Source: a virus (lineage: Duplodnaviria; Caudoviricetes). From it: a stretch of DNA of 27,309 bases. The stretch's first letter is position 1; every line of letters starts with the position of its first letter. Where the stretch lies: IMG/VR virus record IMGVR_UViG_3300020045_004931, positions 1 through 27,309 of that record. One strand, given 5' to 3'. Shown in pieces: positions 9,076-26,033 of this stretch. Position numbers and translations under genes: made by a program. The notes under the pieces are model-generated. The model worked only from the letters and a program-made list of their open reading frames with translations. It ran no database searches and had not been told where the DNA came from.

Positions 9076-9504
9076 TTATTTTAAAGTTAAATTTAGTCTT
9101 AAAAAACTACGAAATATATTTTCTGTATCCGTAACTGTTTCTAATTGCGATTCGTATGTTATATTTTGCGTAATGTTTGTAAATCCTGCAATTGTTAATT
9201 TAGGATTCAAAGCATCACTAACAGCTTGTTCAATATCGTTTAATAATAATCTACTTCCTGAATTGCCCGCACTAGTTGTTTTTGTATAAATTTCAATTAA
9301 CAACGATACTTCCCATTCGTACTCACATTTAGTATTTTTAACAACATCTTTGCTTTGTGCTGTCATTAAAATATACTCATTCAAATTAGCATTACCAGTT
9401 ACACGGCTATCAAAGCATTTTATCGTTTTTCCTGAAACTACAAGATTATTTATAGCGTCAGAAACTGCTTTTCGAATATGTTTATCTGGATTTACATTTA
9501 CCAT
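9076..9504 (-). CDS. tail terminator/completion protein
   Basis: Synteny (between the HK97-gp10-like gene and the tube), size, and an alpha/beta pattern. Confidence 0.65.
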   Translation of the reverse strand: MVNVNPDKHIRKAVSDAINNLVVSGKTIKCFDSRVTGNANLNEYILMTAQSKDVVKNTKCEYEWEVSLLIEIYTKTTSAGNSGSRLLLNDIEQAVSDALNPKLTIAGFTNITQNITYESQLETVTDTENIFRSFLRLNLTLK

Positions 9505-11163: not shown

Positions 11164-11171
11164 CAAAGATA
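11164..11171 (-). promoter_or_regulatory. -7 box TATCTTTG restarting the neck/tail operon
   Basis: Matches TAnnTTTG, back-to-back with the plus-strand promoter at 11184-11214. Confidence 0.6.
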
Positions 11172-11183
11172 GTAAAAATATTG

Positions 11184-11214
11184 TTTGTGTATTAAAAAAG
11201 TTTTTATACATTTG
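11184..11214 (+). promoter_or_regulatory. Bacteroidota promoter (TTTG-N19-TACATTTG) for the plus-strand cassette
   Basis: TTTG at 11184-11187 and TACATTTG at 11207-11214 with a 19-nt spacer, consistent with the -33/-7 consensus. Confidence 0.7.
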
Positions 11215-11219
11215 CTTTA

Positions 11220-11311
11220 TAGTTACGGTCTGAAACTTGGTAACTGAAAAACATTAGCCTTTTTATTAAAGTAAAGCATCAGACCCTTTGCGATAATTTA
11301 AAGGCATTTTT
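11220..11311 (+). ncRNA. candidate structured 5' leader RNA A (two hairpins, kissing loops)
   Basis: The AGTTAC/GTAACT stem has loop GGTCTGAAACTTG. The GCCTTT..GTAAAG/CTTTGC..AAAGGC stem has loop CATCAGACC. GGTCTGA is the reverse complement of TCAGACC. Confidence 0.65.
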
Positions 11312-11325
11312 AATTTATATAATAT

Positions 11326-11556
11326 ATGGGAACATTTTTATTAGATTCAACAAGTGTAAATAAAAAAGAGAAAGGCTTTTACTTCAAAGATGTTATTTTA
11401 GATAACGGAGTAATTGGAGAAAAAAAAGTTTTTAACGGCATTGAATCTGTGAAAGTTGAATTAACTTTTACAAGTAGCGGTGATACCTCTGATTTTACAG
11501 AAGAGGATATTTTGTTTTTGCTTATGGATAAATTAAAAGAACTTAAAAAAGAATAG
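11326..11556 (+). CDS. hypothetical protein (accessory cassette gene 1)
   Basis: Follows the promoter and leader; no long minus-strand ORF competes here. Confidence 0.7.
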   Translation: MGTFLLDSTSVNKKEKGFYFKDVILDNGVIGEKKVFNGIESVKVELTFTSSGDTSDFTEEDILFLLMDKLKELKKE

Positions 11557-11558
11557 TT

Positions 11559-11678
11559 ATGAGAGAAATATTCGAAGCCATTAATGATTATCCTTGGACT
11601 ACTTTTTTTTGTTTCCTTATGTTTATAATTACATTATGCACAATTGACGAAATTATCAAAACATTTAAAAATAAATAA
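11559..11678 (+). CDS. small single-pass membrane protein, 39 aa (cassette gene 2; not in ORF track)
   Basis: MREIFEAINDYPWTTFFCFLMFIITLCTIDEIIKTFKNK*. It has a hydrophobic core and 2-nt spacing to both neighbours. Confidence 0.65.
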   Translation: MREIFEAINDYPWTTFFCFLMFIITLCTIDEIIKTFKNK

Positions 11679-11680
11679 TT

Positions 11681-11965
11681 ATGGAACCAGAAATTATTGG
11701 CTGTACATCAGCAGGATTTGAAGAAAAAGACGGTAAATTTACCGCATTTGAAACGTTACAGAAGCACGTTTACTTCGTTAACGACATTAGTATTGAACGA
11801 ACTAAAAGAAAGTTTATAGAGCGTTTTGTTCGGAAGTTACCCATTGAGCAATTGGAGGTTTTGTTTAATTTCAAAATGAAAGATGTAGAACTCGAAGGAC
11901 AATATACTGAAGGGAGTAAGTTTAGTTGTGAATTGGATAAAAATACAATCAATGAAAAACAATAG
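11681..11965 (+). CDS. hypothetical protein (cassette gene 3)
   Basis: AATTATG start context and tight operon packing. Confidence 0.7.
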   Translation: MEPEIIGCTSAGFEEKDGKFTAFETLQKHVYFVNDISIERTKRKFIERFVRKLPIEQLEVLFNFKMKDVELEGQYTEGSKFSCELDKNTINEKQ

Positions 11966-12227
11966 AAAAAACAGGAAAAAGGAGTTTATATATCATAAAA
12001 ATAGGCTTAGACTTGGTATAACTAAATTCTATTGTTACGAAAAAGTAAGCAATCAAATACAAGAGGATAAAAAATACACTGAAAGACTTATTAATATAGC
12101 AATTAAATCTCTTTGGAGTCAATGGAAGCTTAAATTAAGAAGATGTGAAATTCTTTTTAGAGTGCAAGATGGTAATGATTTTATAAAAAATATTCACACA
12201 AACAAAATAACACTTAGTAATAAATAA
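11952..12227 (+). CDS. basic hypothetical protein (cassette gene 4); start likely 11952
   Basis: In-frame ATG (MKNNRKNRKKEF…) overlapping the end of gene 3. The ORF ends at the bidirectional terminator. Confidence 0.6.
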   Translation: MKNNRKNRKKEFIYHKNRLRLGITKFYCYEKVSNQIQEDKKYTERLINIAIKSLWSQWKLKLRRCEILFRVQDGNDFIKNIHTNKITLSNK

Positions 12228-12257
12228 AAAAAGCCACTCAATTAAGAGTGGCTTTTT
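12226..12257. terminator. bidirectional intrinsic terminator between the capsid gene and the cassette
   Basis: A7-GCCACTC-AATTAA-GAGTGGC-T5 between convergent genes. Confidence 0.85.
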
Positions 12258-12279
12258 AACTATCAACTAAAAACCAAAT

Positions 12280-13512
12280 TTATGCTTGTGCAGTAGTTCC
12301 TTTAATAAAGTAATCACTTCCGTAAACTGGCAACGCAAAGTTACCCTCGATACGAACAGTTACTTTATTTTCACGAACGTTAGTTCCATCTTGCTCAAAG
12401 AACTCAATTCTCATTGATTCTTGTGTCAACAATTGCGCACCTTCCAAGTCAGCTACTACATAGTCTGGAGAAGTCAAAGCGGTTGTTGCATAAGCAGGAA
12501 TCCCCATAAAGAATAAACGACCGTTTACGATTGTAACTCCTTGTGGTAAGTCGTACTCTCCAGATCCTGCAGCTTTATTCAAGAAAAATGAATAGTAAGC
12601 AGACGGACGCAAAAGAATTGCATTTGCTTCTCTTTCGTAAGTATCTTCTAAAACAGCCACGTCAGTAATGATTTTTTCAATCAAAGGAAGTGTAATTGTT
12701 GCAGTAGAAGCGGTAAAATTTCCACTTGTCAAAATACCTTTCAACTGCGGAGAAGTTCCATTTCCGTATAGGATTTGTTGGTCTAACACGTTTCTGAATT
12801 TCTGTGGCAATCTTCTTTGTAAATAAGAAATGAATCCTGGAATGTTGGACATTGCTTTTCTTGTTACACGAATCCAACCAGCGATAGTTTCGATTTGAAC
12901 AGTTGCTTCAACTAAATCTAAATCAAATTGCGCTTTGGTCGCTCCCTCTGCTGTTGGTGCGATTTCTCCCTCTCCTACACCGTTTTCACGCATAAAAGTA
13001 AATGAGTTGCCTGCTCCAATTGAACCACCCGGCAATATTTCGTCCATGTGAACTTTACGAGAAGGACGCATAATTATTTCAGGGGCAAATAGCTGTCCGT
13101 AACGGCTTCCTCCAGTAACGTTAGCTGTTGTGAAATCTCCAACGGCTTTTACCTCTAATTCAACTCTTTGACTTTTCTTGTCACGAAAAGCTTCAATATC
13201 CGCTGTTTTTTCAATAATTGCTTTGGCTAATTCATCGTTGAAGTTACCCGCTTTAGTTTCGATTTGTCTAGCTTGTAGCTTTAAATCCAATTTATCAGCG
13301 TGATCTTGAACAGTTTTTATATCTGCAATGAATTTTAACTCCATTGCTTCTTTAACCTCTTTCAATTGGGTTTCGAACGCTGTTTTTTGAGTTTCAGAAG
13401 TTTTTTCGAATTTTACTTCAAACGCATCGAATGCGGTTTTTACTTCCATTGCTGATTTTGTTTCCAATCCAGCTTTAATGTTTTCTAATTCTTTTTTTAA
13501 TAATTCGTCCAT
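12280..13512 (-). CDS. HK97-fold major capsid protein with N-terminal coiled-coil (delta/scaffold) domain
   Basis: AEGATK, IAGWIRVT, QILYGNGT..QLKGIL and G.P motifs. The first ~120 aa are K/E-rich and helical. Confidence 0.93.
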   Translation of the reverse strand: MDELLKKELENIKAGLETKSAMEVKTAFDAFEVKFEKTSETQKTAFETQLKEVKEAMELKFIADIKTVQDHADKLDLKLQARQIETKAGNFNDELAKAIIEKTADIEAFRDKKSQRVELEVKAVGDFTTANVTGGSRYGQLFAPEIIMRPSRKVHMDEILPGGSIGAGNSFTFMRENGVGEGEIAPTAEGATKAQFDLDLVEATVQIETIAGWIRVTRKAMSNIPGFISYLQRRLPQKFRNVLDQQILYGNGTSPQLKGILTSGNFTASTATITLPLIEKIITDVAVLEDTYEREANAILLRPSAYYSFFLNKAAGSGEYDLPQGVTIVNGRLFFMGIPAYATTALTSPDYVVADLEGAQLLTQESMRIEFFEQDGTNVRENKVTVRIEGNFALPVYGSDYFIKGTTAQA

Positions 13513-13513
13513 T

Positions 13514-14173
13514 TTATTTAAGGATTAATGATTGTGAAAATGATTTTAATGTGTCTAAAATAATCGGCTGTTCATTCAAAGTGTCAGTTTCTGACGGCTC
13601 ATTAGAAAGTGATTTTAATATTGTTTCAATTCGCATCAAACGACTGTCTGAATAAGGCAAATTATATGCTTTTGTTAGTAATTCCATAAAACCATAGTGT
13701 GATTTTATTGATTTTATTCCTTGCACTGTGCTTAATTCGTTTGCGCCCCAACTAGATAAGAAAGAGTACTCCATCAACTTATATTCGTTGATGATTGACT
13801 TGTTTCTCGAATCACGACCAAGTACTTTATACCCTATAGATAACTCAGCATTAAGATTGTTTTCGTGCATCAATTTCACGTCTGTAAACATATCTTTTCC
13901 TAATGGTTTGTTCATATTAAACTGGGTAGTAGTCAACAAACCATAAGTGTCTTTGGTATCTATAAACAAAGGCACACCTATCATCATTGTTGGGTTATGG
14001 TCTTTTAATACACGAATACGTTTAAAGTTTTCGCTTACTGTTTTGTCAAAAGACCCGTAAGCCGAAACATCCCCGTCAGAATCTTTATAATTATACGCAT
14101 TGGCGTAAGCTGTAACAACTCCTTTTGCCTCGTCAAGTTCTTTTAAATCGTATGATAATTGCTTGAAATCCAT
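13514..14173 (-). CDS. HK97-family prohead protease
   Basis: AYA…DSDGD…GSF, His in DHNPTMMIG, Ser in ELSIGY, and L.EYS…AN motifs. Confidence 0.92.
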   Translation of the reverse strand: MDFKQLSYDLKELDEAKGVVTAYANAYNYKDSDGDVSAYGSFDKTVSENFKRIRVLKDHNPTMMIGVPLFIDTKDTYGLLTTTQFNMNKPLGKDMFTDVKLMHENNLNAELSIGYKVLGRDSRNKSIINEYKLMEYSFLSSWGANELSTVQGIKSIKSHYGFMELLTKAYNLPYSDSRLMRIETILKSLSNEPSETDTLNEQPIILDTLKSFSQSLILK

Positions 14174-14947
14174 TTAATTAGTTTTTAATATTAACATTCC
14201 ATCAGCATCACGCTTTGGAACAAATGCAATCGTACAACGGCAATTTATTACGTTTCCTGCGCTCGCTTTAGTATCGCCTGGATATTGAATATTTTCTCCT
14301 CCAACAAAGAAAGGTTTTTCCAATTCTTGTTTTTGATTATTCATATCAAAATGATCGTAAGGCGTTACTCTTGTTCGATTATCCTGTACGCTTATCCAAA
14401 CTTTATCCAAAACTAAATCGCTTTGTTCAGCTGTTTTAATAGCTGCGAAATTCGATGCGCTTGTGGTTTCAGTTCTTGCAATTCTTAAAGCTTGCCATTT
14501 GTAAAATGTTTGGCTTTTTTCTATTATTGACTGAATTGCATTTCTCAAATCAATTACAGTTCCGTTTTCGCCTATTGATATTTGAATAGTTTTAATTATA
14601 TCATTTATCAATGTATCGTGAACAGAAGTAATCTTTACACCTCCTTCATTAGACAAAAATAGTAAAATTTCCTTTAATAATGTTTCGTTGAACAAAACAT
14701 TTGCCTTTTTTGCCTTTTCTAACGAATTATTTACTTTATTACCGTAATTAATCCCAATAGTTGTATAAATTTCACGGAACATTTTAAATATTTGTTCTTC
14801 TGAAATATTTGACTTTATTAATATTTCGTAATTTGATAATGTGACATTGTTGTACGGGATATTTTTCAAAATCTTTGATATGTGATTCTGAACTATTCTA
14901 TAGGCTTTGCGCTCATAGATATTTCGTTGTTTTTCCCATGCTATCAT
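14174..14947 (-). CDS. minor head protein (SPP1 gp7 / Mu gpF-like)
   Basis: RIARTET, KVWIS..D.RTR…H and YPGD…AGNVINCRC motifs. Confidence 0.9.
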   Translation of the reverse strand: MIAWEKQRNIYERKAYRIVQNHISKILKNIPYNNVTLSNYEILIKSNISEEQIFKMFREIYTTIGINYGNKVNNSLEKAKKANVLFNETLLKEILLFLSNEGGVKITSVHDTLINDIIKTIQISIGENGTVIDLRNAIQSIIEKSQTFYKWQALRIARTETTSASNFAAIKTAEQSDLVLDKVWISVQDNRTRVTPYDHFDMNNQKQELEKPFFVGGENIQYPGDTKASAGNVINCRCTIAFVPKRDADGMLILKTN

Positions 14948-15117
14948 ATTTTTTTACCGTATATATTGAAACCGCATTTTACACATTGGTTTAAATGATA
15001 TTGATATGTTGCATAATTATCTTTATAACGTACCAACCAACCGTATTCGCATAATATTTTATGCAACCACCACTTAAACGGCTTTTTATGTTCTTTATCT
15101 ACTTTTGACCAACTCAT
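14944..15117 (-). CDS. small Cys/His-containing protein, 57 aa (not in ORF track)
   Basis: MSWSKVDKEHKKPFKWWLHKILCEYGWLVRYKDNYATYQYHLNQCVKCGFNIYGKKI*. It has ATGA overlaps with both the portal stop and the minor-head start. Confidence 0.7.
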   Translation of the reverse strand: MSWSKVDKEHKKPFKWWLHKILCEYGWLVRYKDNYATYQYHLNQCVKCGFNIYGKKI

Positions 15118-16493
15118 AAATTAGACTCATTCATTACTCCATCACTAACATCATCAATTCTTTTGCCGTTAATCCAAACAATATCCATACCATCATCTGT
15201 CAAGGTTTCATATTTGAAAACTGTTCTTTTTTCATTTGGTGTCAAAGGAATAAGATTTAATGCTTCGGCTTGTTTCTTCATATCCTCCTGCATTTCTGGC
15301 AACTCTGTAACATCCCATTCAATAACGCTATTCTCATAGCCTTTAAATTTAGGAATAAACGATTTATTCCAAGCCGACTGCAATAATACTAAATCTGGCT
15401 GAATATCATCAGTAATCAATTGCTTTCTTGCATCGTTGTTAGTACTGCCTGCCATTGCTCCAGAAGTATCAGCGTTTAATAATTCGTCAGGAAAATTCAA
15501 CACGTTGCAAATAGTTTTTTGATCCCAGTTAAGATAATCAAACGGTTTCAACTCATCTGTTGTGAGTGATATTCTTTGAAACCCAACTTCAGCACTACTT
15601 GCTCCAATTTTACCCAATCTTTGAGGGTCTTTATCCATTTCAACCAAACGCTCTTTTAAAGATGTTGCTTGCTCCTCTGTTAATGGCTCGCCCTTTCCAT
15701 ATAAAAAACCATAAGCTCCAGCTGACTGGAGCATTTTAATATTTGTATCAATTGCCGAGTTTTGACTGTTTACATTTCTTAATCCTGCTCTTAAAGGAGA
15801 TTGACCGTACAAATGAGAGCCGTTCATGTCATAGTTTGGATTTACATATTTCACATGTAAAATTTCTTCAACTCCAAATTTTATGTATTGATTGCCTTCG
15901 ACCAACATATAGTAATCAATTGGATTTTCATCGATCAATAAATTAGCATTTGGTTTTAAAACTATTTGCATTAAATGGCTAGGCAAAACATAAACCATTT
16001 TAGGAATTCCTTTGTTTGCGCCTTCCGTTGCCGATACGTGGTATTGATAGTAATTACCAGTAATTTTCATATAGGTCTTAAATAAGCCTATAACATCACT
16101 CCAAGTTTGATTAGGATTTGGTTGCTCTAATGGAAAAGCTTTTTCTTGGTCTTTGTAGGCTTTTGTTTGAAGTGAATTTCTTTTAATTTGTTGTTGCAAA
16201 GAAAATAAGCCTTTAGTGGCTAAATCTAATTGATTTAATTTTGAATAAGATTGCTTGTTTTCGATTTCTTTAATAGTGTAAGGTACAGAAACAGTCTTTA
16301 CTGTTTGCTTATTGATAATAGCAAAAACAGTGGGATTTTCGTTGTATCCTTTTTCTAAATAGGTTTTATTGCTTTGGTCATATTTGGCATAACCATTACC
16401 CATAAATTGAAAGAAAGCCTGATTAAAAGCATTTCTTTCTTGTTTATTACCCGTAAGCGCACTCCACGCCAATTGAAACTTATTTTTTGCCAT
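15114..16493 (-). CDS. portal protein (HK97 family)
   Basis: NPTVFAII, PNPNQT, GNYY, EILHVK..NP, YGQSPL and TPNEKR motifs, plus synteny after TerL. Confidence 0.92.
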   Translation of the reverse strand: MAKNKFQLAWSALTGNKQERNAFNQAFFQFMGNGYAKYDQSNKTYLEKGYNENPTVFAIINKQTVKTVSVPYTIKEIENKQSYSKLNQLDLATKGLFSLQQQIKRNSLQTKAYKDQEKAFPLEQPNPNQTWSDVIGLFKTYMKITGNYYQYHVSATEGANKGIPKMVYVLPSHLMQIVLKPNANLLIDENPIDYYMLVEGNQYIKFGVEEILHVKYVNPNYDMNGSHLYGQSPLRAGLRNVNSQNSAIDTNIKMLQSAGAYGFLYGKGEPLTEEQATSLKERLVEMDKDPQRLGKIGASSAEVGFQRISLTTDELKPFDYLNWDQKTICNVLNFPDELLNADTSGAMAGSTNNDARKQLITDDIQPDLVLLQSAWNKSFIPKFKGYENSVIEWDVTELPEMQEDMKKQAEALNLIPLTPNEKRTVFKYETLTDDGMDIVWINGKRIDDVSDGVMNESNL

Positions 16494-16497
16494 AGAA

Positions 16498-16505
16498 CAA
16501 AGATA
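16498..16505 (-). promoter_or_regulatory. -7 box TATCTTTG, 4 nt before the portal ATG
   Basis: TATCTTTG-TTCT-ATGG, nearly identical to the site at 9501-9516. Confidence 0.55.
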
Positions 16506-16517
16506 TATAAAAATTTA

Positions 16518-17816
16518 TTACATAATGAAAAAAGCGGGTTTAAAGCAAAAATACATGCGCATCATCAAAGCATCCGAATAATCAGGAGATCGCCCTATTG
16601 ATTCCTTAACTTTTTCTTTTGATAATAATTGCAATTTACCATCACTGTCTATTTTATCCCTTTTAACTTGCTCCAACTCTTTTGACATTTCATCAATTAT
16701 ATTACCATCTTTGCAATTTACAAATATTTCTCCATTCTGTATCATTTCTGCTAACTTAAAATAACATTGTGTTTTTAAGTTTTGATATTGAACTATTTGG
16801 TTTTCAACTAACATAGGTTTTGAATTATTTACAAATCCTTTGCAACCTAAAATATCTACAACACCGCCACCTACTCCATCTTCATCAGCAATAATATTAG
16901 TTAAAGGAACTTTGTATTTTGTCGCTAAATCTTTGATAGCTTTTGCGGTTTCGGTAACGCTTGACTTTGCCAATGTGTAAATTTCAACAACCCTAAAACC
17001 AGACCAAACATTAATAACCATTTTATCACTACCAAAACGGGCAATATCAGCACTTATAAAATAATCTCCAAACGGGACGAAATCATTAGTGAATATGTTC
17101 TGTATCTTTTCGTAGTCTATCAGTTTTGCAGGATCATTATCATATTCCCAGTTTCCAAAATACAACCGTTGCTTTGAGTTTTCATCAAGTGATAATAATG
17201 ATTCTAAATAAGACTTTGGTAAGTGCGGATTATCTTTTGGTAAAGCTTGAATAAACTTCTTATCCTTGTCAATTGATTTATTTTTGTCTTTTAAATAAAA
17301 TTGTGCATAAACCCAATTTTTAGACGGGTTGCAAGTACCTAACATTTTAGGCATTATCCCAAGTTCTTTTATTTTATAACGAATACGTGATTTTACAATT
17401 TGCCAAGCTTTATAGGTAACTTGGTTGCATTCATCGATAAAAGCTCCTGTAATTTCCAAAGATCCCAAGCTGTCAAAATTTGGATCAGAAGGAAACGCAT
17501 ACAGATCTTTTAAAAGTATTTCAGATCCGTTTTTCCAGTAAATAATACCAGCCTGTCCGTTGTAGTTAAATTGGTCGGTTATTTTTAATTGTGATGCTAA
17601 TTCAAAGAAAGTGTTTAATGTTGTTTCTTTTAACGCTTTTAGTTTTGACCTACCCATCAGCCAACGAGTGCCTGGGTATTTTTGACATTGTTCAATTAAC
17701 CAAAGATTACCAAGTGCTGATTTACCACCTCCAGCTGCACCACCGTAAATCAACTCTTTTGTTTCGCTATCTTTTAAATAATAGACAGCATGTTCTTGTT
17801 TAGGTATTAGTCTCAT
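16518..17816 (-). CDS. terL: terminase large subunit
   Basis: Walker A YGGAAGGGKS, Walker B AFIDE, coupling motif TCNP, and RNase H-like nuclease motifs SADIARFGSD and SPDYSDALM. Confidence 0.95.
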   Translation of the reverse strand: MRLIPKQEHAVYYLKDSETKELIYGGAAGGGKSALGNLWLIEQCQKYPGTRWLMGRSKLKALKETTLNTFFELASQLKITDQFNYNGQAGIIYWKNGSEILLKDLYAFPSDPNFDSLGSLEITGAFIDECNQVTYKAWQIVKSRIRYKIKELGIMPKMLGTCNPSKNWVYAQFYLKDKNKSIDKDKKFIQALPKDNPHLPKSYLESLLSLDENSKQRLYFGNWEYDNDPAKLIDYEKIQNIFTNDFVPFGDYFISADIARFGSDKMVINVWSGFRVVEIYTLAKSSVTETAKAIKDLATKYKVPLTNIIADEDGVGGGVVDILGCKGFVNNSKPMLVENQIVQYQNLKTQCYFKLAEMIQNGEIFVNCKDGNIIDEMSKELEQVKRDKIDSDGKLQLLSKEKVKESIGRSPDYSDALMMRMYFCFKPAFFIM

Positions 17817-18252
17817 TTGGGTCAGTTCCGTTACCTAGTGAAATAATCGTAGTTTTTATTTCTCCTGAATGTTCGTTTTGAATCCTTTCTCCGTATTTTT
17901 TAGGATTGAGTTTAGATAGCGACCACTTTAAAGCGTCAATCTTTAATCTTCTGTGCCCCAACATATCGCCTGTAGTAATTTCTATTCCTCTTTCGGTTTC
18001 TTTTGTAGTCGTTCCTTCTTCAGTATTATAAGCAATATCAATTATTTCATCGAACAAAATATCTGTTCTTAAATCCGTTGCAAGTTCGTATCGTTTCGAT
18101 TTTAACTCATCTTCTTTTAGCCAAATAAAAAAAGTTGAACTACTTGGCATATTTTCATCCTCTTTCAAAATAGAACGTAAAGACCTTCCTGTTTCAATTT
18201 CTTCACAGATTTTGGTAAAAGTTATTTCTATTTCTTCTTGTGAGTAAGCCAT
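17800..18252 (-). CDS. terS: terminase small subunit (Sf6 gp1-like); start corrected to 18252
   Basis: GRSLRSIL…MPSSSTFFIWL HTH and RLKIDALKW.LSKLNPKKYG motifs. The track's first 26 codons coincide with a promoter and terminator hairpin. Confidence 0.88.
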   Translation of the reverse strand: MAYSQEEIEITFTKICEEIETGRSLRSILKEDENMPSSSTFFIWLKEDELKSKRYELATDLRTDILFDEIIDIAYNTEEGTTTKETERGIEITTGDMLGHRRLKIDALKWSLSKLNPKKYGERIQNEHSGEIKTTIISLGNGTDPNETNT

Positions 18253-18259
18253 ATAATTC

Positions 18260-18302
18260 AAAAAAACCGCTTTCAACCAAGGACACCCCAACCAAAAGCG
18301 GT
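18260..18302 (-). terminator. terminator-like hairpin in the terS leader
   Basis: ACCGCTTTT-GGTTGGGG-TGT-CCTTGGTT-GAAAGCGGT followed by T6, ending 7 nt before the ATG. Confidence 0.7.
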
Positions 18303-18327
18303 AAAAATTATTAGTAATTATGAATAG

Positions 18328-18335
18328 CAAATATA
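18328..18335 (-). promoter_or_regulatory. -7 box TATATTTG, candidate late promoter
   Basis: Matches TAnnTTTG in the intergenic region upstream of terS. Confidence 0.6.
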
Positions 18336-18362
18336 ATTGATTGGATTGGATTGTGCAAATAT

Positions 18363-18680
18363 TTATTCAATGATATAAATTTGACAGCTTCTACTTGTAG
18401 GCTTAAATGTTCCATCGTTTATTCTGTTTTCAATAACATCTCCATCGTGAGGTTTTATTTTGCATTTGACCGCATAATGTATTTGACAGCCAGCAACAAC
18501 AATAAAGTTTTCTTCCCTGCCAACTTTAGCAAACCAATTAGAGCTTCTAACGTTTGTTTTAATTCCTAAAATAGCATCGCTTACTATTTCTACATTCCCC
18601 CATACGGCATTATATTGCTTTCCATCTGGAGCATAAAACCAGTTGTCTGTTGTTATTAGGTAATTTCCTGTCATAATCAT
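18363..18680 (-). CDS. hypothetical phage protein
   Basis: 105-aa ORF with YLITTDNWFYAPDGKQY.AVWG and AGCQIHYAV. Function unknown. Confidence 0.75.
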   Translation of the reverse strand: MIMTGNYLITTDNWFYAPDGKQYNAVWGNVEIVSDAILGIKTNVRSSNWFAKVGREENFIVVAGCQIHYAVKCKIKPHDGDVIENRINDGTFKPTSRSCQIYIIE

Positions 18681-18687
18681 TTATTAT

Positions 18688-18774
18688 TTAAGTTAAAAAT
18701 TTCGTTTGCTTTTCAGCACCTCTACGCCATTCATTGTGACGCTTCAATATCTTTATTGCTTCTTTTAGTTTCAT
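18688..18774 (-). CDS. very short ORF, 28 aa; possibly a truncated remnant
   Basis: MKLKEAIKILKRHNEWRRGAEKQTKFLT*, with an ATGA overlap with the upstream ORF. Confidence 0.45.
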   Translation of the reverse strand: MKLKEAIKILKRHNEWRRGAEKQTKFLT

Positions 18775-18905
18775 AGTTTTATTTGTTTGGTGTTATTGAA
18801 AAATTCAATCAACTCTCTCATTGCTTGTAATTGCTTTTTATTATAAGGCTTTGAATATTTGGCTTTTTTTGGCTTTTTGTTCTTGTGAATTTTAAAGTAG
18901 TTCAT
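18771..18905 (-). CDS. small basic hypothetical protein, 44 aa
   Basis: MNYFKIHKNKKPKKAKYSKPYNKKQLQAMRELIEFFNNTKQIKL*. It fills the gap and its stop overlaps the next ATG. Confidence 0.5.
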   Translation of the reverse strand: MNYFKIHKNKKPKKAKYSKPYNKKQLQAMRELIEFFNNTKQIKL

Positions 18906-18946
18906 AAATTTATTTTTTAGTGATTAATGTTTTGTTGGTTTTTTGG

Positions 18947-20587
18947 TTATATTTTAAGTTTTGTCCTTAATTCATTTTGTCTTTCTGGTAATTCATAAAT
19001 TCTATTTTTAATAAAATACCCCTCATCTGAAAAATCAATGTTATTTTCAACGTGTTCAATCGATTTATAAACATCATAAACACTTTCACAAATAAAGAAT
19101 AAAACATTATTTCGCATCATTTCTGGAAGAGTTTCTTGTTGGTGTTTGGTTAATTTTCCATACTTCATTTTTAATTCAAGTCCAAAGTAAAATGATGTTT
19201 TTTTATAATAAACCGCATTGTCTGGTAGTCCGTTTTTAGATGCAAAATGTACCCATCTATTTTCAATGTAAGCTTTTCCGCTGTTTTGCCTCCAGTAAAA
19301 ATAACCTGTTTTTTCTAAAAAATTATTTACATCTTCTTGAAGTTCGGCTTCCTTTTGATAAATTTTGCCATCATACAAATCCAATAAAGAACCGATTCTT
19401 TTAAGAAATATTTGTTTTTCTTCTGTAATCATATTTGACAAATTTTGTCTAATATCATTTGAAACATCTAAATTCATTTCTCGATCAATAACACGTGAAA
19501 TCTTTTTGCCAAATACTAATTCTTTTCTATCTGTTGGTAATCCGTGCTCTTCAACGCATCCACAACAATCTAATAAGATACAATCTGATTTTCCGTTTGA
19601 AATTGATTCTTCAATAGTCTTACCAAGCAATCTAATACCTCTTCCGCATATCTGAATGTATTTTTTCCAAGATTTAGTTGGACACGCAATAATAACACAT
19701 TTTACCGTCGGGTCATCAAAACCTGCAGTTAGTATTTCAATCGAAATTAATCCTTTTGAAATTCCTTTAGCGTATCTTTCGTAAATTAAATCACGATTTT
19801 TTTTAGAAGTGTCTGCGGTTATAACATCTGTTATAATTCCTTTTAATTCAAATTCTTTTTGTAACTCAAAACAGTGTAATTTATTCACTCCAAAACAAAT
19901 AAACTTTCTTTGTTCTCCAAGTTCAATATATTTTTCAATTATTGATTTATTTATATCCTGTTTTACTATTTCTTCATTTACACTTTTTTCTTGATAGTCT
20001 TTTGTGTTTGAAGATATTTTAACATTCGACAAATCAAAATTAACTGGAGAATAAATTTTAAAAGGAGTTAACCAGCCTAAATTAATTAAGTCAATTGTCT
20101 GATAGTCATCAATTATAGAATCAAATCCATCTAACAAAAAATCTTTATTATCAACTGGAGTTGCCGAAAGTCCTAAAAAAATTGCCTTTGGAAATCTTGT
20201 AAATAAGTTTTGAATAAATCCGCTTTCGAATCCAAAATGAACTTCATCTATAATTATTATTTTTGGTTCTGCAATATCAGTATTTGTAAGTGTTTGAATA
20301 GTAGCTACCAGTAATTCGTAGTCTTCAAAATAACCCTCACTATTTCCTTGTAAAAAACTCGGTTTTAAGCTTTCGAATTTATCCCTTGATTGTTCGGCTA
20401 GTCCAATACGATGTGAAGTAAACAAAACCCTATTTTTTTTAACTATTGCATCTTTGCAAATCTGATAAGACAAAATAGTTTTTCCGTAACCAGTTGGAGC
20501 ATTTATTAAAATTCGTTTATGTCCTTTTCTTAATTCGTCTTTTATTTTATTATAGACATTTGTTTGTGGCTCTCTTAATTGGTACAT
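18947..20587 (-). CDS. SF2 (DExH) helicase with C-terminal VRR-NUC-like PD-(D/E)xK nuclease domain
   Basis: APTGYGKT, IIIDEVH, LSATP, LTAGFD and QICGRGIR motifs. The C-terminal region has E..LQ…GLPD…LELKMKYGKLTKHQ. Confidence 0.85.
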   Translation of the reverse strand: MYQLREPQTNVYNKIKDELRKGHKRILINAPTGYGKTILSYQICKDAIVKKNRVLFTSHRIGLAEQSRDKFESLKPSFLQGNSEGYFEDYELLVATIQTLTNTDIAEPKIIIIDEVHFGFESGFIQNLFTRFPKAIFLGLSATPVDNKDFLLDGFDSIIDDYQTIDLINLGWLTPFKIYSPVNFDLSNVKISSNTKDYQEKSVNEEIVKQDINKSIIEKYIELGEQRKFICFGVNKLHCFELQKEFELKGIITDVITADTSKKNRDLIYERYAKGISKGLISIEILTAGFDDPTVKCVIIACPTKSWKKYIQICGRGIRLLGKTIEESISNGKSDCILLDCCGCVEEHGLPTDRKELVFGKKISRVIDREMNLDVSNDIRQNLSNMITEEKQIFLKRIGSLLDLYDGKIYQKEAELQEDVNNFLEKTGYFYWRQNSGKAYIENRWVHFASKNGLPDNAVYYKKTSFYFGLELKMKYGKLTKHQQETLPEMMRNNVLFFICESVYDVYKSIEHVENNIDFSDEGYFIKNRIYELPERQNELRTKLKI

Positions 20588-20589
20588 TT

Positions 20590-20730
20590 TTAATTTAGAT
20601 TTATTATGAATAATTTGTATCGTTTAATATATTCCATTTCTATTTCAAGAAACATTTGTAATGAAATTTTACCGTCAATGAATAAGTTACAATGATTGTC
20701 GTAGGTTCTTAAAAGTAAATTGTATTCCAT
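20590..20730 (-). CDS. hypothetical protein, 46 aa (not in ORF track)
   Basis: MEYNLLLRTYDNHCNLFIDGKISLQMFLEIEMEYIKRYKLFIINLN*, ending 2 nt before the helicase start. Confidence 0.55.
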   Translation of the reverse strand: MEYNLLLRTYDNHCNLFIDGKISLQMFLEIEMEYIKRYKLFIINLN

Positions 20731-20742
20731 TTTTAAATTTTA

Positions 20743-20985
20743 TTACTGTGCACCGTGCACACCTCGTGCACACCTATTTTGCGCACCTAAATCCTAATGT
20801 TTTCAATACTTAACAAGCTTTTTTACTGTGCATGCACACCTAAACATGTAAAACGATATTTTTTTTAAAATATTTTTTTTATTTCTATTTTAGTCGTGCA
20901 CATGTGCATGCACACCTAAAATCATTGTAAAGCATTGTCTTTATTGGTTTTTTACTGTGAATCCGACTGCGCAATTGGGTGTGCA
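20743..20985. repeat. iteron-like repeat cluster, candidate replication origin
   Basis: TGCACACCT at 20756, 20767, 20833 and 20909; variant TGCGCACCT at 20780; inverted GGGTGTGCA at 20977. TTACTGTG at 20743, 20823 and 20952. A nearly pure A/T tract spans ~20856-20892. Confidence 0.7.
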
Positions 20986-23297
20986 TTTTCGAACTCTTTA
21001 CACCAATTTTGCACACTTCGACGTGAAATTCCTAAAAGTTCTGCTGTTTCGCTTCTATTAAAGTCTTTTTTGCTTTTCCATATTTCGTGAAGCTTTTCTT
21101 TTTCGGATTTTCCTTTGTGTTGACCTAAAGTGTTTTTTAATTTTCCAACCTCAACTGCATTTATTTTTATTTTCTTTGCAGTAGCAACAAAGTACTTGCT
21201 TAATTTTTCGGCTTTTAATACGCTTTCTTTTGAAATCAATAAACTGTTTCGTTTTTCATCCTCTGGTCTGAAAAATTCGTCAAACGTATGAATCAGACAA
21301 GAAAATCTAGGAATGTAAGATTTTTGTTTTGGAAGCATTGACTTAAGATATTCATTTTCGTTTTCATCATTTTGAACTACTGATAATTCATTGAAAATCC
21401 TAATCCATTCAACTTTTGCTTCATCAGTAAATTTAGCCGTTAACGATATGATTTCATCATCTGAATTTCTTTTTATGATTGACTTCAAAGTATCATAAAA
21501 CATAATGATTGATTCTTTATACCATTTTAAAGTGTCCTCGTTCATTTCTTGCTCGTTGTATGAATCAATTTTTAAATCAGGAAAAGATAAAAGCATCCTA
21601 TCCATAAATCCATTGTCTTTATTTTCGTCTGTATAAAATGAATTAAAAATACTCGGTTGAATTCCTCCAAGGACTGGGATCAAAGGTTTTTCAACAAAAG
21701 AGCCTTTACGGGTTAAACGGTTAAGGTTAACAGATTTTCCGCTCCAAGTCGATAGCCAAAACTCTAAATCAGAACCCTCTCGATATTTATTCATATCTTT
21801 TAACCATCCTGCCAATTCGTCTTTAAAAACCCCTACTGCGTTGTCGTTTTCTTGGTGCAAATCTACCAAGGCTTCTAATGTAATATCGTTAGCTATGAAC
21901 TGCGATTTTCGAGGTTCTTTTACCTCTGGATAATCCTCTTTTTCTTTTTTAGATAACTTTTCGTAGAACTCGAATTTTTCACGCTCTTTGATATATGTCT
22001 TGATTTCCTTGGCATTTATTTTAGCAAGTGGAAAAATGACGTTTGAAATACTTGGAGTTTTTCCAAGTCCAGCCTTCCCAACGATTGAAATCCAAACCGT
22101 TAAATTTTCAATCCAGCCTTTTTTTACCTCAACATTTATAGAGTTACCAACGCATACAGAAATAAGCCAAAGTAACGAACAACCCATATAATCAATAGAA
22201 CTATCCAAAGTTTTATTACATTCAATTAAATAAGCTTGAATGTCTTTTGGAAACACATCAATTGGAAAAACCAAATCTTGTTTATTTATAATCGTAATCG
22301 GTTCTTCATTTGCAACTGGGATATTTTTCTTGAGTTCGTTTACGATTCTTTTTAAACGGCTGCCATATCCTTTTTCATAAAGTTCTTTGGTGCTTTCCTT
22401 GAAATCTGAATTATGATTTTTTATTGTATAAGCAGAAAAAGGAGTTATCAATTTTTCGTGTGGATAAATAGTACCCGTTGAAAATAAATACATAAATCCA
22501 GTATCTTTAAAAACATATCCAGAATGTGGAGAAGTTGCCCCGTGTCTTTTAATTACGTATTTTTTTGAAAGATTACCAACAATTGAAAAATCATCATTTA
22601 TGGTTTCGAAAATGTCGTGTTTAGAATTGTAATCATCCCAAGGCGTTATTTCTCCTTCTGAATATTCAACTTTTTTCTTTACTGGATCAATTGTTTTTTC
22701 TTCAATGTGATTGTACATTTTAGAAAAACTCATTATTACAAATCTGTCTTCGTCTGAAATAAAGTCAATTTGATGGTAACTTTTTTTAGAAACCTGATTG
22801 TCGGGATAAACAAAAATATAACCGCCAATACCACGGGTTTCAATAATAGCTTCTTTATGTCCTTTAAGTTTAGCTAATTTTAAATTACCTTCAATTCGTT
22901 TCGATTTATAAAGCAAGTGATACCCTGCATTTCGTGTTTTATAGATTACAATCTTGTCTTCAAAATCTAAAATGTTATCCGATAAATAACCAATGTATTC
23001 ATCCCAAAATTCCTTTTGTTCTTTTGCGGTTGAGAAAACTTTTAAATCAACGTCAACACACTCTAAATAATCAAATCCTGTAACTATTCCGAAACGGTCT
23101 GTCTTTGGTATTTCGTGAATTACTCCATCCTTATCTGCCCAAGTTTTACCACCTTTATAATTATATTTTTCTATAAAAGAATTCCAAGACTGTTTTTCAG
23201 TTTGGCATTTTTTCCAAGTAAAGTTCGGTATTTTATTATCTGAAACGGTAATTAAAGAAAAATTGTCGTAGAATAATTTTAGCTTATTTTCTTCCAT
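20952..23297 (-). CDS. replication protein: Prim-Pol (AEP) domain + DUF3987/YfjI-like P-loop domain + C-terminal HTH
   Basis: VDVD, KTRNAGYHL and ETRGIGGY (Prim-Pol); VGKAGLGKT, DITLEAL, DELAGW and GFMDR (DUF3987); RSETAELLGISRRSVQNW (HTH). Confidence 0.85.
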   Translation of the reverse strand: MEENKLKLFYDNFSLITVSDNKIPNFTWKKCQTEKQSWNSFIEKYNYKGGKTWADKDGVIHEIPKTDRFGIVTGFDYLECVDVDLKVFSTAKEQKEFWDEYIGYLSDNILDFEDKIVIYKTRNAGYHLLYKSKRIEGNLKLAKLKGHKEAIIETRGIGGYIFVYPDNQVSKKSYHQIDFISDEDRFVIMSFSKMYNHIEEKTIDPVKKKVEYSEGEITPWDDYNSKHDIFETINDDFSIVGNLSKKYVIKRHGATSPHSGYVFKDTGFMYLFSTGTIYPHEKLITPFSAYTIKNHNSDFKESTKELYEKGYGSRLKRIVNELKKNIPVANEEPITIINKQDLVFPIDVFPKDIQAYLIECNKTLDSSIDYMGCSLLWLISVCVGNSINVEVKKGWIENLTVWISIVGKAGLGKTPSISNVIFPLAKINAKEIKTYIKEREKFEFYEKLSKKEKEDYPEVKEPRKSQFIANDITLEALVDLHQENDNAVGVFKDELAGWLKDMNKYREGSDLEFWLSTWSGKSVNLNRLTRKGSFVEKPLIPVLGGIQPSIFNSFYTDENKDNGFMDRMLLSFPDLKIDSYNEQEMNEDTLKWYKESIIMFYDTLKSIIKRNSDDEIISLTAKFTDEAKVEWIRIFNELSVVQNDENENEYLKSMLPKQKSYIPRFSCLIHTFDEFFRPEDEKRNSLLISKESVLKAEKLSKYFVATAKKIKINAVEVGKLKNTLGQHKGKSEKEKLHEIWKSKKDFNRSETAELLGISRRSVQNWCKEFENAHPIAQSDSQ

Positions 23298-23345
23298 AGT
23301 ATTGTTTAAAATTTTAATTTCTTACTAATTAATTCAAATAAAAAA

Positions 23346-23510
23346 TTACTTAAGTTTTTCTATTAAGAAAATTTCCGAAACTTTCCAATTGTGATTTGAA
23401 ATTCTAACGTACAAAGTCGGCTTTGTTATGCCTATTTTTTTTACCAATTCTTCATCAGTAAAAGATAGTCGAAGCCTTTGTACTTTTGATGTTGCCTCTA
23501 ATTTTGTCAT
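23346..23510 (-). CDS. small HTH (Cro-like) DNA-binding protein, 54 aa (not in ORF track)
   Basis: MTKLEATSKVQRLRLSFTDEELVKKIGITKPTLYVRISNHNWKVSEIFLIEKLK*. The EL.KKIGITKPTLY segment forms an HTH. Confidence 0.75.
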   Translation of the reverse strand: MTKLEATSKVQRLRLSFTDEELVKKIGITKPTLYVRISNHNWKVSEIFLIEKLK

Positions 23511-23542
23511 AATTTATTATTTATTTTTTTACTAAATTTTTC

Positions 23543-23571
23543 AAAACAAAAGCCAATAATTAAACTGGCTT
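23543..23571 (-). terminator. terminator-like hairpin between the promoter box and the HTH gene
   Basis: AAGCCAGT-TTAATT-ATTGGCTT followed by TTGTTTT. Confidence 0.45.
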
Positions 23572-23582
23572 ATTTTGTTCTA

Positions 23583-23590
23583 CAAATATA
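23583..23590 (-). promoter_or_regulatory. -7 box TATATTTG upstream of the HTH/primase genes
   Basis: Matches TAnnTTTG in the intergenic gap. Confidence 0.55.
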
Positions 23591-23596
23591 GTTAAT

Positions 23597-23731
23597 TTAT
23601 TCAATCCCAAACCATATATAATCAATTTTCTTTTTAATTTCTCTAGCTTTTTCTTTGTCGATTTGCATTAATCTACGGTATTCTTTTTCGAGGTCTTCGA
23701 TGGTTGGTTGTTTTGTTTTTTGTTTCGCCAT
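23597..23731 (-). CDS. hypothetical protein, 44 aa (not in ORF track)
   Basis: MAKQKTKQPTIEDLEKEYRRLMQIDKEKAREIKKKIDYIWFGIE*, with a TAATG overlap with the MTase stop. Confidence 0.6.
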   Translation of the reverse strand: MAKQKTKQPTIEDLEKEYRRLMQIDKEKAREIKKKIDYIWFGIE

Positions 23732-25914
23732 TAGAATAGTGTTAAAGTGCTATTTTTTTCTGCAACAAAAGCCTTATGATTGCTTTCATTGATTTTAAAG
23801 TAACTTTCTTTTAACTCAATACTAATTGATTTTCGATTCATTTTAATCGCACAACAACCCTCTGAACCAATACCTCCAAACGGACTTAATACCGTTTCTC
23901 CCTCGTTTGAATATAAATGCAATATTCTTTCAATCGTATCTAATTGTAATGGACAAATATGTTTCTCATCATTACCATCACGACATGAACGATATTGCAA
24001 AGTTCTTGAATAATCAATATCATACCATACTGGAGAAGCATATTTTTGCCATAAATCAACTGGCAAATAATCCAGTCTTGTATGGTCTTTGTCTTGGTGC
24101 GTTATTGGTGTTTCATTTTCTCCCTCATTTCTAAAAAACAAAACGTAATCAGGAATGCCAACCCTCGACATAATAGAATCTTTTTTTATTGTTTTATGGA
24201 GCAATCCTAATGCTTTTGTACGTTGCATTTCGGTAACAGGGTTTTTCCACAAAGTAACTTTTGAATGATAAATAAACCCCTCTTTTTGAAACCAATCAAT
24301 TAACATTCCTGAAAAATCACGAAGTCCAATATATCCCTCTTTTCCTTTTTGAATAGGCAAATCCATACAATGAATAGCACACATACGACCGCTTTTAAGA
24401 GTTCGTTTCAATTCTGGAATCAGGAACTTAAAATGCTTTTCAAACTCTTGGTAATTTGATACGTTACCCATATCCTCTTCTTTATCTGAATATACATATA
24501 ATTCAGCAAATGGAGGCGAAAACACAACTATATCGGCACAATTATCTGGAAGTTTAGCAGTTTCTTGAACGCAATCACCATTTATCAAATGGTATTGATC
24601 TGTTTTAATTTCTTTGTTCATAATTTTTACTTTTGATTTTGCAAGTTTATAATTGGTTTCCGCACTGTATCTCGACATTTCTTTAATACGCTCGAAGTGC
24701 TGTTTTTCTTTTGTTAAAATAGTACTTCTCACATTCGTTTGACTTTCTGGAATCAAGATATGAACCGTTACTTTGTTTTGTTGTCCAAAACGATAGCAAC
24801 GTCTTACAGCCTGATAAAACGATTCAAACTTAAAATCATAAGACATAAAAACCATTTCATTACATTGTTGGTAATTCATACCAAACGAAGCAATAGAAGT
24901 CTTTGTAATCAATGTTTTAAATTCGTTATTTGCAAATCCGTTTAAATGTTTTGCTTTATATTCTGGACTATCCGAACCTTGCACATTTACACTATTTGTA
25001 AGCAATTTTGATAAAGTATCAGTTTCCTGATTTTTCAATCCCCAAACAATACATTGATTTTCATTTGCATTTACTATTTCCAAAGTTTTTTCAATCCTTG
25101 CATCGAATGAACGACTCAAGTCTTTATGTAAGTATGTTGCACTTACAGCAACATCACCAAATAGATTTTCACTTAAATTTTCAACCTTAATAATATGCTC
25201 GATATATTCAATTTCTGGCAAATTATATCCCTCGTTGCAAAATCCTAAACTACTTGGATTATCAATAGCCATAGACCAACCAGATACATATTTCCAAAAG
25301 TTATCTTGAGCGTGTTTTCTTAAACGCCATTTTGAAGTTTCTCCTCCATCGTGAACAAAGAACATTGCCAACATTTCTAAATAAGACATGCCTCCTAAAA
25401 ATTCAGAATGTTGCCCTAATTCCATATGGTCGTTTGGACTTGGTGTTGCAGTACAACAAAGTTTATAAGGTGTTGTTTTAAACGTTTCAATTATCAATGA
25501 TGATAGTTTACCGTCACGACCTTTTAAAATGCTCGATTCATCCAATACAACACCTGAATAAATAGAAGTATCTGTGTTTTTCAATTGATCGTAATTTGTA
25601 ATATCAAAAACATCAATATCGATTCCAAATTTTATAGATTCATTTTTTGTTTGTTCAACAATTGCCAAAGGAGCAAGTATTAAAACTTTCTTTTTTGTTT
25701 TTATTGACACTTGTTTTGCCCATTCTAATTGACAAAATGTTTTTCCTAATCCACAATCAAAGAAAAACGCAAACTTTCCTTTAAATAAAGCCGTTTTAAC
25801 TCCAAACTTTTGAAAGTCTTTTAATAATGGATTTAATTTATTTTCAGAAATAGTAAATCCACTTTCTAAAAATGTTTTTCGTTTTGTTTCTAAAAACTTT
25901 TGATAATCACTCAT
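23731..25914 (-). CDS. SNF2-like helicase fused to an amino (N4-C/N6-A) DNA methyltransferase; start corrected to 25914
   Basis: N-half: DCGLGKT, VLDESS, TATPSPND, GMNYQ and QAVRRCYRFGQ. C-half: GDC, catalytic SPPF, HICPLQ and SAM-binding SPFGGIGS in beta-class order. Confidence 0.88.
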   Translation of the reverse strand: MSDYQKFLETKRKTFLESGFTISENKLNPLLKDFQKFGVKTALFKGKFAFFFDCGLGKTFCQLEWAKQVSIKTKKKVLILAPLAIVEQTKNESIKFGIDIDVFDITNYDQLKNTDTSIYSGVVLDESSILKGRDGKLSSLIIETFKTTPYKLCCTATPSPNDHMELGQHSEFLGGMSYLEMLAMFFVHDGGETSKWRLRKHAQDNFWKYVSGWSMAIDNPSSLGFCNEGYNLPEIEYIEHIIKVENLSENLFGDVAVSATYLHKDLSRSFDARIEKTLEIVNANENQCIVWGLKNQETDTLSKLLTNSVNVQGSDSPEYKAKHLNGFANNEFKTLITKTSIASFGMNYQQCNEMVFMSYDFKFESFYQAVRRCYRFGQQNKVTVHILIPESQTNVRSTILTKEKQHFERIKEMSRYSAETNYKLAKSKVKIMNKEIKTDQYHLINGDCVQETAKLPDNCADIVVFSPPFAELYVYSDKEEDMGNVSNYQEFEKHFKFLIPELKRTLKSGRMCAIHCMDLPIQKGKEGYIGLRDFSGMLIDWFQKEGFIYHSKVTLWKNPVTEMQRTKALGLLHKTIKKDSIMSRVGIPDYVLFFRNEGENETPITHQDKDHTRLDYLPVDLWQKYASPVWYDIDYSRTLQYRSCRDGNDEKHICPLQLDTIERILHLYSNEGETVLSPFGGIGSEGCCAIKMNRKSISIELKESYFKINESNHKAFVAEKNSTLTLF

Positions 25915-25929
25915 AATTATTAATTTTTT

Positions 25930-26021
25930 AAAATTAGAAACCCCTAAACAATGCACTACTACTGTTTAGGGGTTCTTGTTAGTATTTCTACTAAATATTT
26001 TCCTGTCGGTAGTGCTTCGAC
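25930..26021 (-). ncRNA. candidate structured 5' leader RNA B (kissing hairpins plus a GAAA-tetraloop hairpin)
   Basis: GTCG-AAGCACTAC-CGAC; TTAGTA-GAAA-TACTAA; AACCCCTAAACAGT-AGTAGTGC-ATTGTTTAGGGGTT. GCACTAC is the reverse complement of GTAGTGC. Confidence 0.65.
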
Positions 26022-26025
26022 TTCG

Positions 26026-26033
26026 CAAAGATA
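26026..26033 (-). promoter_or_regulatory. -7 box TATCTTTG upstream of leader B
   Basis: Matches TAnnTTTG. A 4-nt spacer puts +1 on the first base of hairpin 1. Confidence 0.65.

Follow-up and report, generated by a model that had tools for sequence, protein, structure and literature searches.

The viral record IMGVR_UViG_3300020045_004931, a tailed-phage contig of 27,309 bases that was analysed in its entirety (the window), contains two short leaders of ~90 nt, A on the + strand and B on the - strand, which are members of a widespread class of cis-acting RNA located at promoter starts in phages of Bacteroidota. In each leader, a short 5' hairpin (P1) is followed by a linker and by a long terminator-like hairpin (P2) with a U tract, and the two loops carry complementary stretches, a code in P1 and an anticode in P2, that can pair in a loop-loop kiss. 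Its likely role is to set the share of transcription that gets past the stop signal. On balance, we judge that it probably does so as a cis attenuator, in which the kiss would oppose closure of the terminator base and promote read-through, without a sequence-specific ligand site. We infer here the direction of the kiss effect and its input, and the promoters and terminators are predicted ones.

The anatomy of the two leaders agrees in coordinates and folds with a preliminary description of this DNA, which had reported for each a promoter, a short 5' hairpin, a long 3' hairpin, seven loop-loop pairs and an ATG. The promoter boxes are predicted from the motif TAnnTTTG, which we take to be the -7 promoter box of Bacteroidota. 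The window terminase shares 80% identity with its counterpart in Flavobacterium phage 11b, the - strand carries virion genes and a replication block, and a tRNA scan of the window returned none. The parts of the leaders and the genes that they head are as follows.

11207-11214, + strand: predicted -7-like promoter box of leader A, TACATTTG
11220-11246, + strand: P1 hairpin of leader A as folded, 7 bp with a 13-nt loop
11227-11233, + strand: loop code GGTCTGA of leader A (class II geometry: at the 5' edge of the P1 loop, 3' overhang of 6 nt)
11247-11256, + strand: linker of leader A, 10 nt, A-rich, containing the RAYATT motif
11257-11305, + strand (11257-11313 with the U tract): P2 terminator-like hairpin of leader A, with two 2x2 internal loops
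11279-11285, + strand: anticode TCAGACC of leader A, at the 3' edge of the P2 loop
11326, + strand: start codon ATG after the U tract of leader A
11326-12227, + strand: four small open reading frames (ORFs) with no function assigned, headed by leader A and inserted against the virion operon
26033-26026, - strand: predicted -7-like promoter box of leader B, TATCTTTG, 7 nt past the stop of the DUF7220 gene
26021-26005, - strand: P1 hairpin of leader B as folded, 4 bp
26015-26009, - strand: loop code GCACTAC of leader B, at the 3' edge of the P1 loop (class I geometry)
25994-25979, - strand: linker hairpin of leader B as folded, ending a few nt short of the P2 base; an addition to the preliminary description
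25975-25937, - strand (25975-25927 with the U tract): P2 terminator-like hairpin of leader B
25959-25953, - strand: anticode GTAGTGC of leader B, at the 3' edge of the P2 loop
25914, - strand: start codon ATG after the U tract of leader B
25914-23731, - strand: gene for an SNF2-like helicase / N6-N4 DNA methylase fusion of 727 aa, headed by leader B

The fold z-score is -2.6 for leader A and -4.8 for leader B, and the tail of each has U at 5 of 8 bases. Leader A belongs to a pair of back-to-back predicted promoters (window 11164-11214): the one at 11171-11164 (-) restarts the head-tail genes, and the one at 11207 (+) leads into the four small ORFs inserted against the late operon. Upstream of a homologue of the leader-A gene, in locus L081, the hairpins are doubtful, with a weak P1 and no strict promoter.

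A descriptor made up of promoter, hairpin, hairpin and kiss was used with either a strict or a relaxed promoter criterion. In the window, the strict form matches twice (A and B), against a total of one match across 30 dinucleotide shuffles. A third match, at 9448, depends on the relaxed promoter; it falls in coding DNA and is background (22 relaxed matches in 30 shuffles). The -7 box by itself is not enriched in the window (51 vs 47.5). The class sample consists of loci around relatives of four window genes together with four cultured phages, in all 257 sequences and 3.31 Mb, which are related and partly redundant and in which replication genes are favoured by the sampling. It yields 162 high-confidence strict matches, as compared with 4, 3 and 2 in shuffles. 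The matches reduce to 126 non-redundant elements with 89 loop codes of 6-10 nt. P1 begins 1-11 nt past the -7 box in 121 of the 126, the anticode directly abuts the 3' arm of P2 in 103, and an ATG lies 9-28 nt past the P2 stem in 109. At least five U are found among the eight tail nucleotides in 108 elements, with T at 89-91% in the three positions following the first tail base.

The idea that the different 7-mers act like natural covariation is borne out within families, although the elements are related rather than independent and kinship inflates the counts: five of the seven kiss pairs are changed on both sides in the family of leader B (21 sequences, 95-97% of cells paired) and four of seven in that of leader A (83% paired), the latter in the closer subset of 10 relatives and not the fuller set of 19. 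Family B keeps some loop bases (AC/GT). Across the class, the code letters are free and their polarity can be swapped: the phage FCV-1 has the code of family B in reverse. Conservation is limited to the pairing, so that RNA searches by sequence would overlook the class as a whole.

The kiss also appears in sets that were picked by other criteria. Among 133 promoter-terminator-ORF leaders selected without regard to the kiss, 95 pass the descriptor and 98 pair over at least 6 nt between the 5' end and the terminator tip, compared with 6.8 (maximum 15) after permutation. Conversely, 309 long-arm terminators were picked without a promoter criterion; 84 of them have a kiss, and 81 of these 84 have a -7-like box at most 24 nt before P1, whereas the remaining 225 have a strict box within 75 nt in 40 cases. 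The kiss is concentrated in terminators with arms of 14-23 nt (90 of 103, vs 5 of 22 with short arms). In the sampled phage DNA, the class is the commonest promoter-proximal terminator, accounting for about three in four. Two variants without P1, L249:3149 (+) and L191:2189 (-), have a single-stranded 5' end that can pair over about 9-11 nt with the terminator tip.

In the proposed mechanism, P1 would fold at +1, and the anticode would emerge and kiss the P1 loop before the 3' arm of P2 exits the RNA polymerase. The upper 3-6 bp of P2 would stack beneath the kiss. Further zipping of P2 would shorten the linker, and the closed ring would be nearly taut just when the last pairs form in the exit channel. 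The kiss would hinder closure of the GC base of the terminator, so that a fraction of the polymerases would continue into the gene that follows. Closure may be weakened further by an internal loop in P2 or by a linker hairpin beside the stem base, and in gut prophage variants the 5' strand of P1 may also invade the 3' arm of the terminator. Replication, nuclease and early lytic genes would in this way be delivered in a metered or delayed dose. Since the code letters are free, the balance would most likely be set by folding kinetics and the state of the polymerase (speed, pausing, Mg2+) and not by a metabolite. Read-through must occur in any case, in view of the essential genes downstream: the primase gene is headed directly in 34 of 69 loci and via one small gene in 20 more, which makes 54 of 69.

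The geometry of the elements is varied, and the linker looks length-limited. Both codes lie at 3' loop edges in 63 of 117 elements and the code lies at the 5' edge of loop 1, as in leader A, in 18; the mirror arrangement is seen in 11 and symmetric loops in 16, and 9 fall outside these groups. The linker between the stems ranges from 10 to 35 nt, and the effective linker has a median of 18 nt in the both-3'-edge group vs 14 nt in the A-like group (p=1e-5). Long linkers tend to fold an extra hairpin (27 of 35, vs 6.5 in shuffles), and of 27 linker hairpins 19 end within 4 nt of P2; most elements are without such a hairpin. P2 itself often has an internal loop, which is purine-rich, recurring and usually placed 3-6 bp below the apical loop. 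An internal loop only is present in 83 elements, a linker hairpin only in 18, both in 10 and neither in 6. A coaxial P1-kiss-P2 rod, modelled from helix dimensions, needs about 4.2 Å per linker nucleotide at full P2, so that the ring would be near taut as P2 completes. The kiss has a median strength of -9.4 kcal/mol. In six gut-prophage leaders, the 5' strand of P1 can extend the kiss into the 3' arm of the terminator (ranks 6-24 of 117 swapped controls), and in two of the six this antiterminator is the minimum-energy fold when the RNA is cut at the U tract. One further proposal, an insulator in which upstream sequence melts P1 in read-through transcripts, was rejected, as real and shuffled upstream sequences behave alike (p=0.84).

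Kissing-loop attenuation as such is already known. In the guanidine-IV riboswitch (GGAM-1/mepA), the loop of a 5' hairpin kisses the loop of a long intrinsic terminator within about 95-105 nt (PMC7736828, PMC11611296), and the kiss is proposed to block completion of the terminator by linker strain and not by shared sequence (PMC11611296). The present class has the same pairing between the P1 loop and an intrinsic terminator loop, and its GC-based hairpin followed by a U tract (at least five U in 8 nt in 108 of 126) is that of intrinsic terminators. The same sources describe guanidine-IV as ligand-dependent, mostly found in Firmicutes and 97% conserved at its loop bases (PMC7736828, PMC11611296). 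The class, in contrast, has a free Watson-Crick code of 6-10 bp, a link to the promoter start, a phage home, and replication, nuclease and lytic targets. It is therefore very unlikely that we are dealing with a small-molecule riboswitch related to guanidine-IV, or with a self-cleaving ribozyme, in spite of the similar outline and size: the conserved ligand-pocket bases are missing (89 codes in 126 elements and the polarity swap of FCV-1 leave no invariant loop base), the downstream genes are not metabolic and Rfam gives no match, with the caveat that single families do keep some bases, such as those of family B noted above. Self-cleavage, one of the tests put forward in the preliminary description, found no positive support.

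A second precedent comes from tug-of-war riboswitches, in which a structure lying no more than about 5 nt upstream of a terminator is reported to suppress it whatever its sequence (bioRxiv 10.64898/2026.06.17.733018). The linker hairpins of family B, which end 0-8 nt (median 4) before P2, may be comparable. The difference, as far as that text goes, is that switching there needs an aptamer and that a loop-loop contact is absent; kissing, phage and Bacteroid- are not mentioned in it (bioRxiv 10.64898/2026.06.17.733018). Together, the kiss-versus-terminator precedent of guanidine-IV and the suppression of termination by nearby upstream structure favour the cis attenuator.

Several observations weigh against the cis attenuator. 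A strong kiss of 7-10 bp might always form, no input that would switch it having been found, and a spacing of 4.2 Å per nucleotide is within reach of single-stranded RNA, so that kiss and full terminator could coexist. Linkers do not become longer as stems do (rho -0.32, class I), contrary to a fine tuning of tension, so that any tuning would be loose. The mutual exclusion of linker hairpin and internal loop is owed largely to one family. When the gut leaders are cut at the U tract, the terminator is the minimum-energy fold in four of the six. Furthermore, in the 117 elements, which are mostly flavobacterial, extension of the kiss into the stems is weaker than in swapped controls (-2.28 vs -2.74 kcal/mol, which is partly a bias of the descriptor), and the hint of direction thus comes from three gut families. 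Finally, plain terminators without a kiss hold the same place in the window (23583) and in six other primase loci.

The coexistence of kiss and complete hairpin leads to another explanation, to which we give little credence: the kiss would mainly stabilise the 5' end of the mRNA or short RNA, or tune translation of the next gene, and termination would simply be leaky. The coaxial model makes this sterically possible, and the ATG at 9-28 nt past the stem would suit it. A role of this kind hardly accounts for the conservation of the GC base and of the T positions in the tail, for the long non-coding stretch that follows the element in gut prophages, or for the concentration of the kiss in long-arm terminators. 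The preliminary description had left the choice between control of termination and control of translation; the conserved GC stem base and the U tract favour the former, and the latter found no positive support.

Alternatively, the kissed structure might serve through its shape as the landing site of a protein from phage or host, or of RNA polymerase itself (in the manner of put, N/nut or Rop), so that only polymerases carrying the factor pass this and later terminators, with the U tract as a checkpoint. Free code letters and a swappable polarity would be expected of a shape code, and the lytic-promoter position opposite CI-like repressors agrees with that of lambdoid antitermination sites. Recurrent purine-rich internal loops 3-6 bp below the apical loop of P2 also speak for it, as does the RAYATT linker motif, which occurs in 40 of 117 elements vs 9 in shuffles, about 5 nt past the end of P1 and in all four geometric classes. 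This motif was also considered as a mimic of the -7 box that causes sigma pausing; generic nAnnTTT is not enriched (35 vs 32) and the motif follows P1, not the promoter, and the idea was rejected. The plain promoter-proximal terminators in the same window suggest that an antiterminator may exist. We nevertheless regard a landing site as unlikely. The elements are patchy, with 0-2 copies per genome, and are interchangeable before one and the same gene, the helicase-methylase being headed in 17 of 77 loci by many different families. A common regulator encoded downstream was rejected, as the small proteins there form no common family, and no candidate protein was found. The closest parallel also differs in kind. 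HK022 putL and putR are, like the class, two-hairpin nascent RNAs near early phage promoters, and act in cis without a phage protein (PMC9378689). Their stems are adjacent and make base-specific contacts to the beta' zinc-binding domain, and neither a loop-loop kiss nor a terminator as second stem is described for put in that part of the source (PMC9378689); the stems of the class are separated by 10-35 nt and free in sequence, without conserved polymerase-contacting bases. The PeSL promoter/stem-loop cassettes of T4-like phages are likewise modular promoter-terminator units at gene starts, tied to gene shuffling, but the text at hand presents a single stem-loop of repeated conserved sequence and does not describe a kiss (PMC4122927). 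Elements of the class at the same locus are only 27-57% identical and have different codes.

It could also be imagined that the released, terminated RNA of ~90 nt acts in trans. Its free loop would capture loop 1 of new transcripts, block the cis kiss and enforce termination, and each element would count its own transcripts, as in immunity or copy control. P4 CI, P1 C4 and the plasmid kissing RNAs are analogues: in pT181/pIP501, ColE1 RNA I-Rop, P4 CI and P1 C4, kissing loops control replication or antirepressor genes via a second RNA in trans. With P1 at +1, there is an interval in which the anticode does not yet exist; the genes downstream encode replication initiators, antirepressors and nucleases, and related prophages differ in code. 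The preliminary description had proposed that cross-pairing is prevented by codes specific to each locus. Cross-pairing at 5 nt or more is indeed absent from all 29 same-locus pairs, which would suit a counter as well, but only 2.3 are expected by chance, so that the figure is not significant and the proposal is not supported. The codes change no faster than the P2 stem and are conserved among close relatives (in the closest 20 pairs, conservation is 0.94 for the code vs 0.78 for the P2 arm). In view of the strong kiss and of a linker able to span the full rod, the released RNA probably keeps its loops masked. Unlike the antisense attenuators and immunity RNAs, the class has both loops in one leader. 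Antisense control of the pT181 type was rejected: antisense promoters are not in excess (18 of 117 elements vs 421 of 3121 control starts, or 13.5%), and complementary matches elsewhere in the loci are no longer than in shuffles, revealing no partner. A counter in trans thus seems quite improbable.

More generally, and as a possible though doubtful proposition, the class may constitute a ligand-free, sequence-agnostic gate, in which an arbitrary code of 6-10 bases tethers the 5' end of the transcript to its own terminator loop. The shape would be read by RNA polymerase or a phage factor, or titrated by released RNA, and would license entry into the replication or lytic operon. If true, Bacteroidota would have in this gate a counterpart to lambda N/nut and HK022 put, and prophage induction in gut Bacteroides would be under a second layer of control. 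The class bears on the way in which phages of Bacteroidota get past early terminators and schedule their replication and lytic genes: in lytic phages it is placed at the replication operon, and in gut prophages at the lysis switch. Having carriers in culture (11b, FCV-1, phi10:1, LoVEphage), it is directly testable; it also offers a natural library for tests of steric antitermination and possibly programmable attenuators for Bacteroides.

The class is uncatalogued in the sources searched. Rfam 15 covariance models run on the window, on 10 loci and on 3 loci give no family at the gathering threshold, the best overlap with an element being TEG147 (32 bits vs a gathering score of 56). The literature covered, which leaves out most subscription papers, yielded no description. 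The class is not described in the available text of PMC5737381 and PMC10690425; the supplements of the latter (10,006 phage RNA candidates) are covered in part, and single families may stand there unannotated. The suggestion of an undescribed class of cis-regulatory RNA is supported, and the interpretation given in the preliminary description is, as a whole, partly supported.

Its notion of a phage-wide system was overstated, given the 0-2 copies per genome. Phage 11b has one copy, FCV-1 two, and phi10:1 one with a relaxed promoter (50 of 54 kb covered). LoVEphage has two matches, one of them convincing, and BS-TP1 two doubtful ones. Among 10 environmental records, 7 have one or two copies; the remaining 3, like phi38:1, phi4:1, P12002L and Versailles (50 of 58 kb covered), yielded none. 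Lifestyle does not explain presence: an integrase is found in 2 of the 10 records, one with and one without an element. Besides primase and helicase-methylase genes, the elements head genes for replisome organisers, helicases, HNH and GIY-YIG endonucleases, antirepressors and unrelated small proteins, as judged from a scan of 79 of the 117 downstream proteins from which the large primase and helicase-methylase repeats were mostly omitted. An HNH query recovered itself only.

In temperate phages of gut Bacteroidales, the class is found at the lytic promoter opposite a CI-like repressor, and in LoVEphage the promoter of the element points away from the gene of an S24-type repressor, the two being divergent. 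Gut loci with related repressors number 42 and represent six lineages in about three families; the descriptor is passed by 38 of them, the fold shows the element in 3 more, and 1 has a scrambled P2. In bacterial DNA the class did not emerge: three host chromosomes (1.2 Mb) give 13 strict matches vs 5-14 when shuffled, none showing the leader anatomy; the family-B code pattern matched in 13 of 401 host-genus genomes, with 13 control matches, which is background; and searches of 301 and 401 genomes of one order with the LoVE leader DNA and the repressor profile gave no convincing match. Downstream of the kissing leader in L431, L432 and L434 there is a second, weaker promoter-hairpin-kiss-like unit (AGTGGG/CCCACT), which in L431 stands just before the antirepressor gene. 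In L394, L428 and L431, short inverted repeats overlap the -7 box and are, by eye, likely repressor operators.

Two further promoters of the window had been described as followed by terminator-like hairpins. The hairpins are indeed present (z -2.9 and -3.0), but neither a 5' hairpin nor a kiss was found in the leaders of these promoters (18335-18328 and 23590-23583):

18335-18259, - strand: predicted promoter, 17-bp plain terminator-like hairpin and U7, kiss absent, immediately ahead of the small terminase gene at the head of the late operon
23590-23543, - strand: predicted promoter and short plain terminator-like hairpin, kiss absent, before a 54-aa ORF and then the primase gene

The first (18259-18335, -) resembles a late promoter needing an antiterminator, and similar plain leaders occur in L102 and L105. 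At the site of the second (23543-23590), most relatives have a kissing leader. The window stretch 23346-23590 (-) appears to be an alternative head of the primase operon, in which a promoter, a short plain terminator and a small gene replace the kissing leader; the gene looks by eye like a helix-turn-helix (HTH) gene, its copy in the window being without family match. The same alternative head occurs in L097, L104, L110, L112, L121 and L131. A contig filed in a Saccharibacteria metagenome-assembled genome (MAG), L094, has Bacteroidota-type promoters and three such kissing leaders, and is probably a mis-binned phage. Finally, the LoVEphage record MW660583 contains at about 36336-36446 (L352:16536-16646, -) a match to 5S rRNA above the gathering score (76 bits, E 1.7e-14), which is either a 5S-like RNA or carry-over from assembly.

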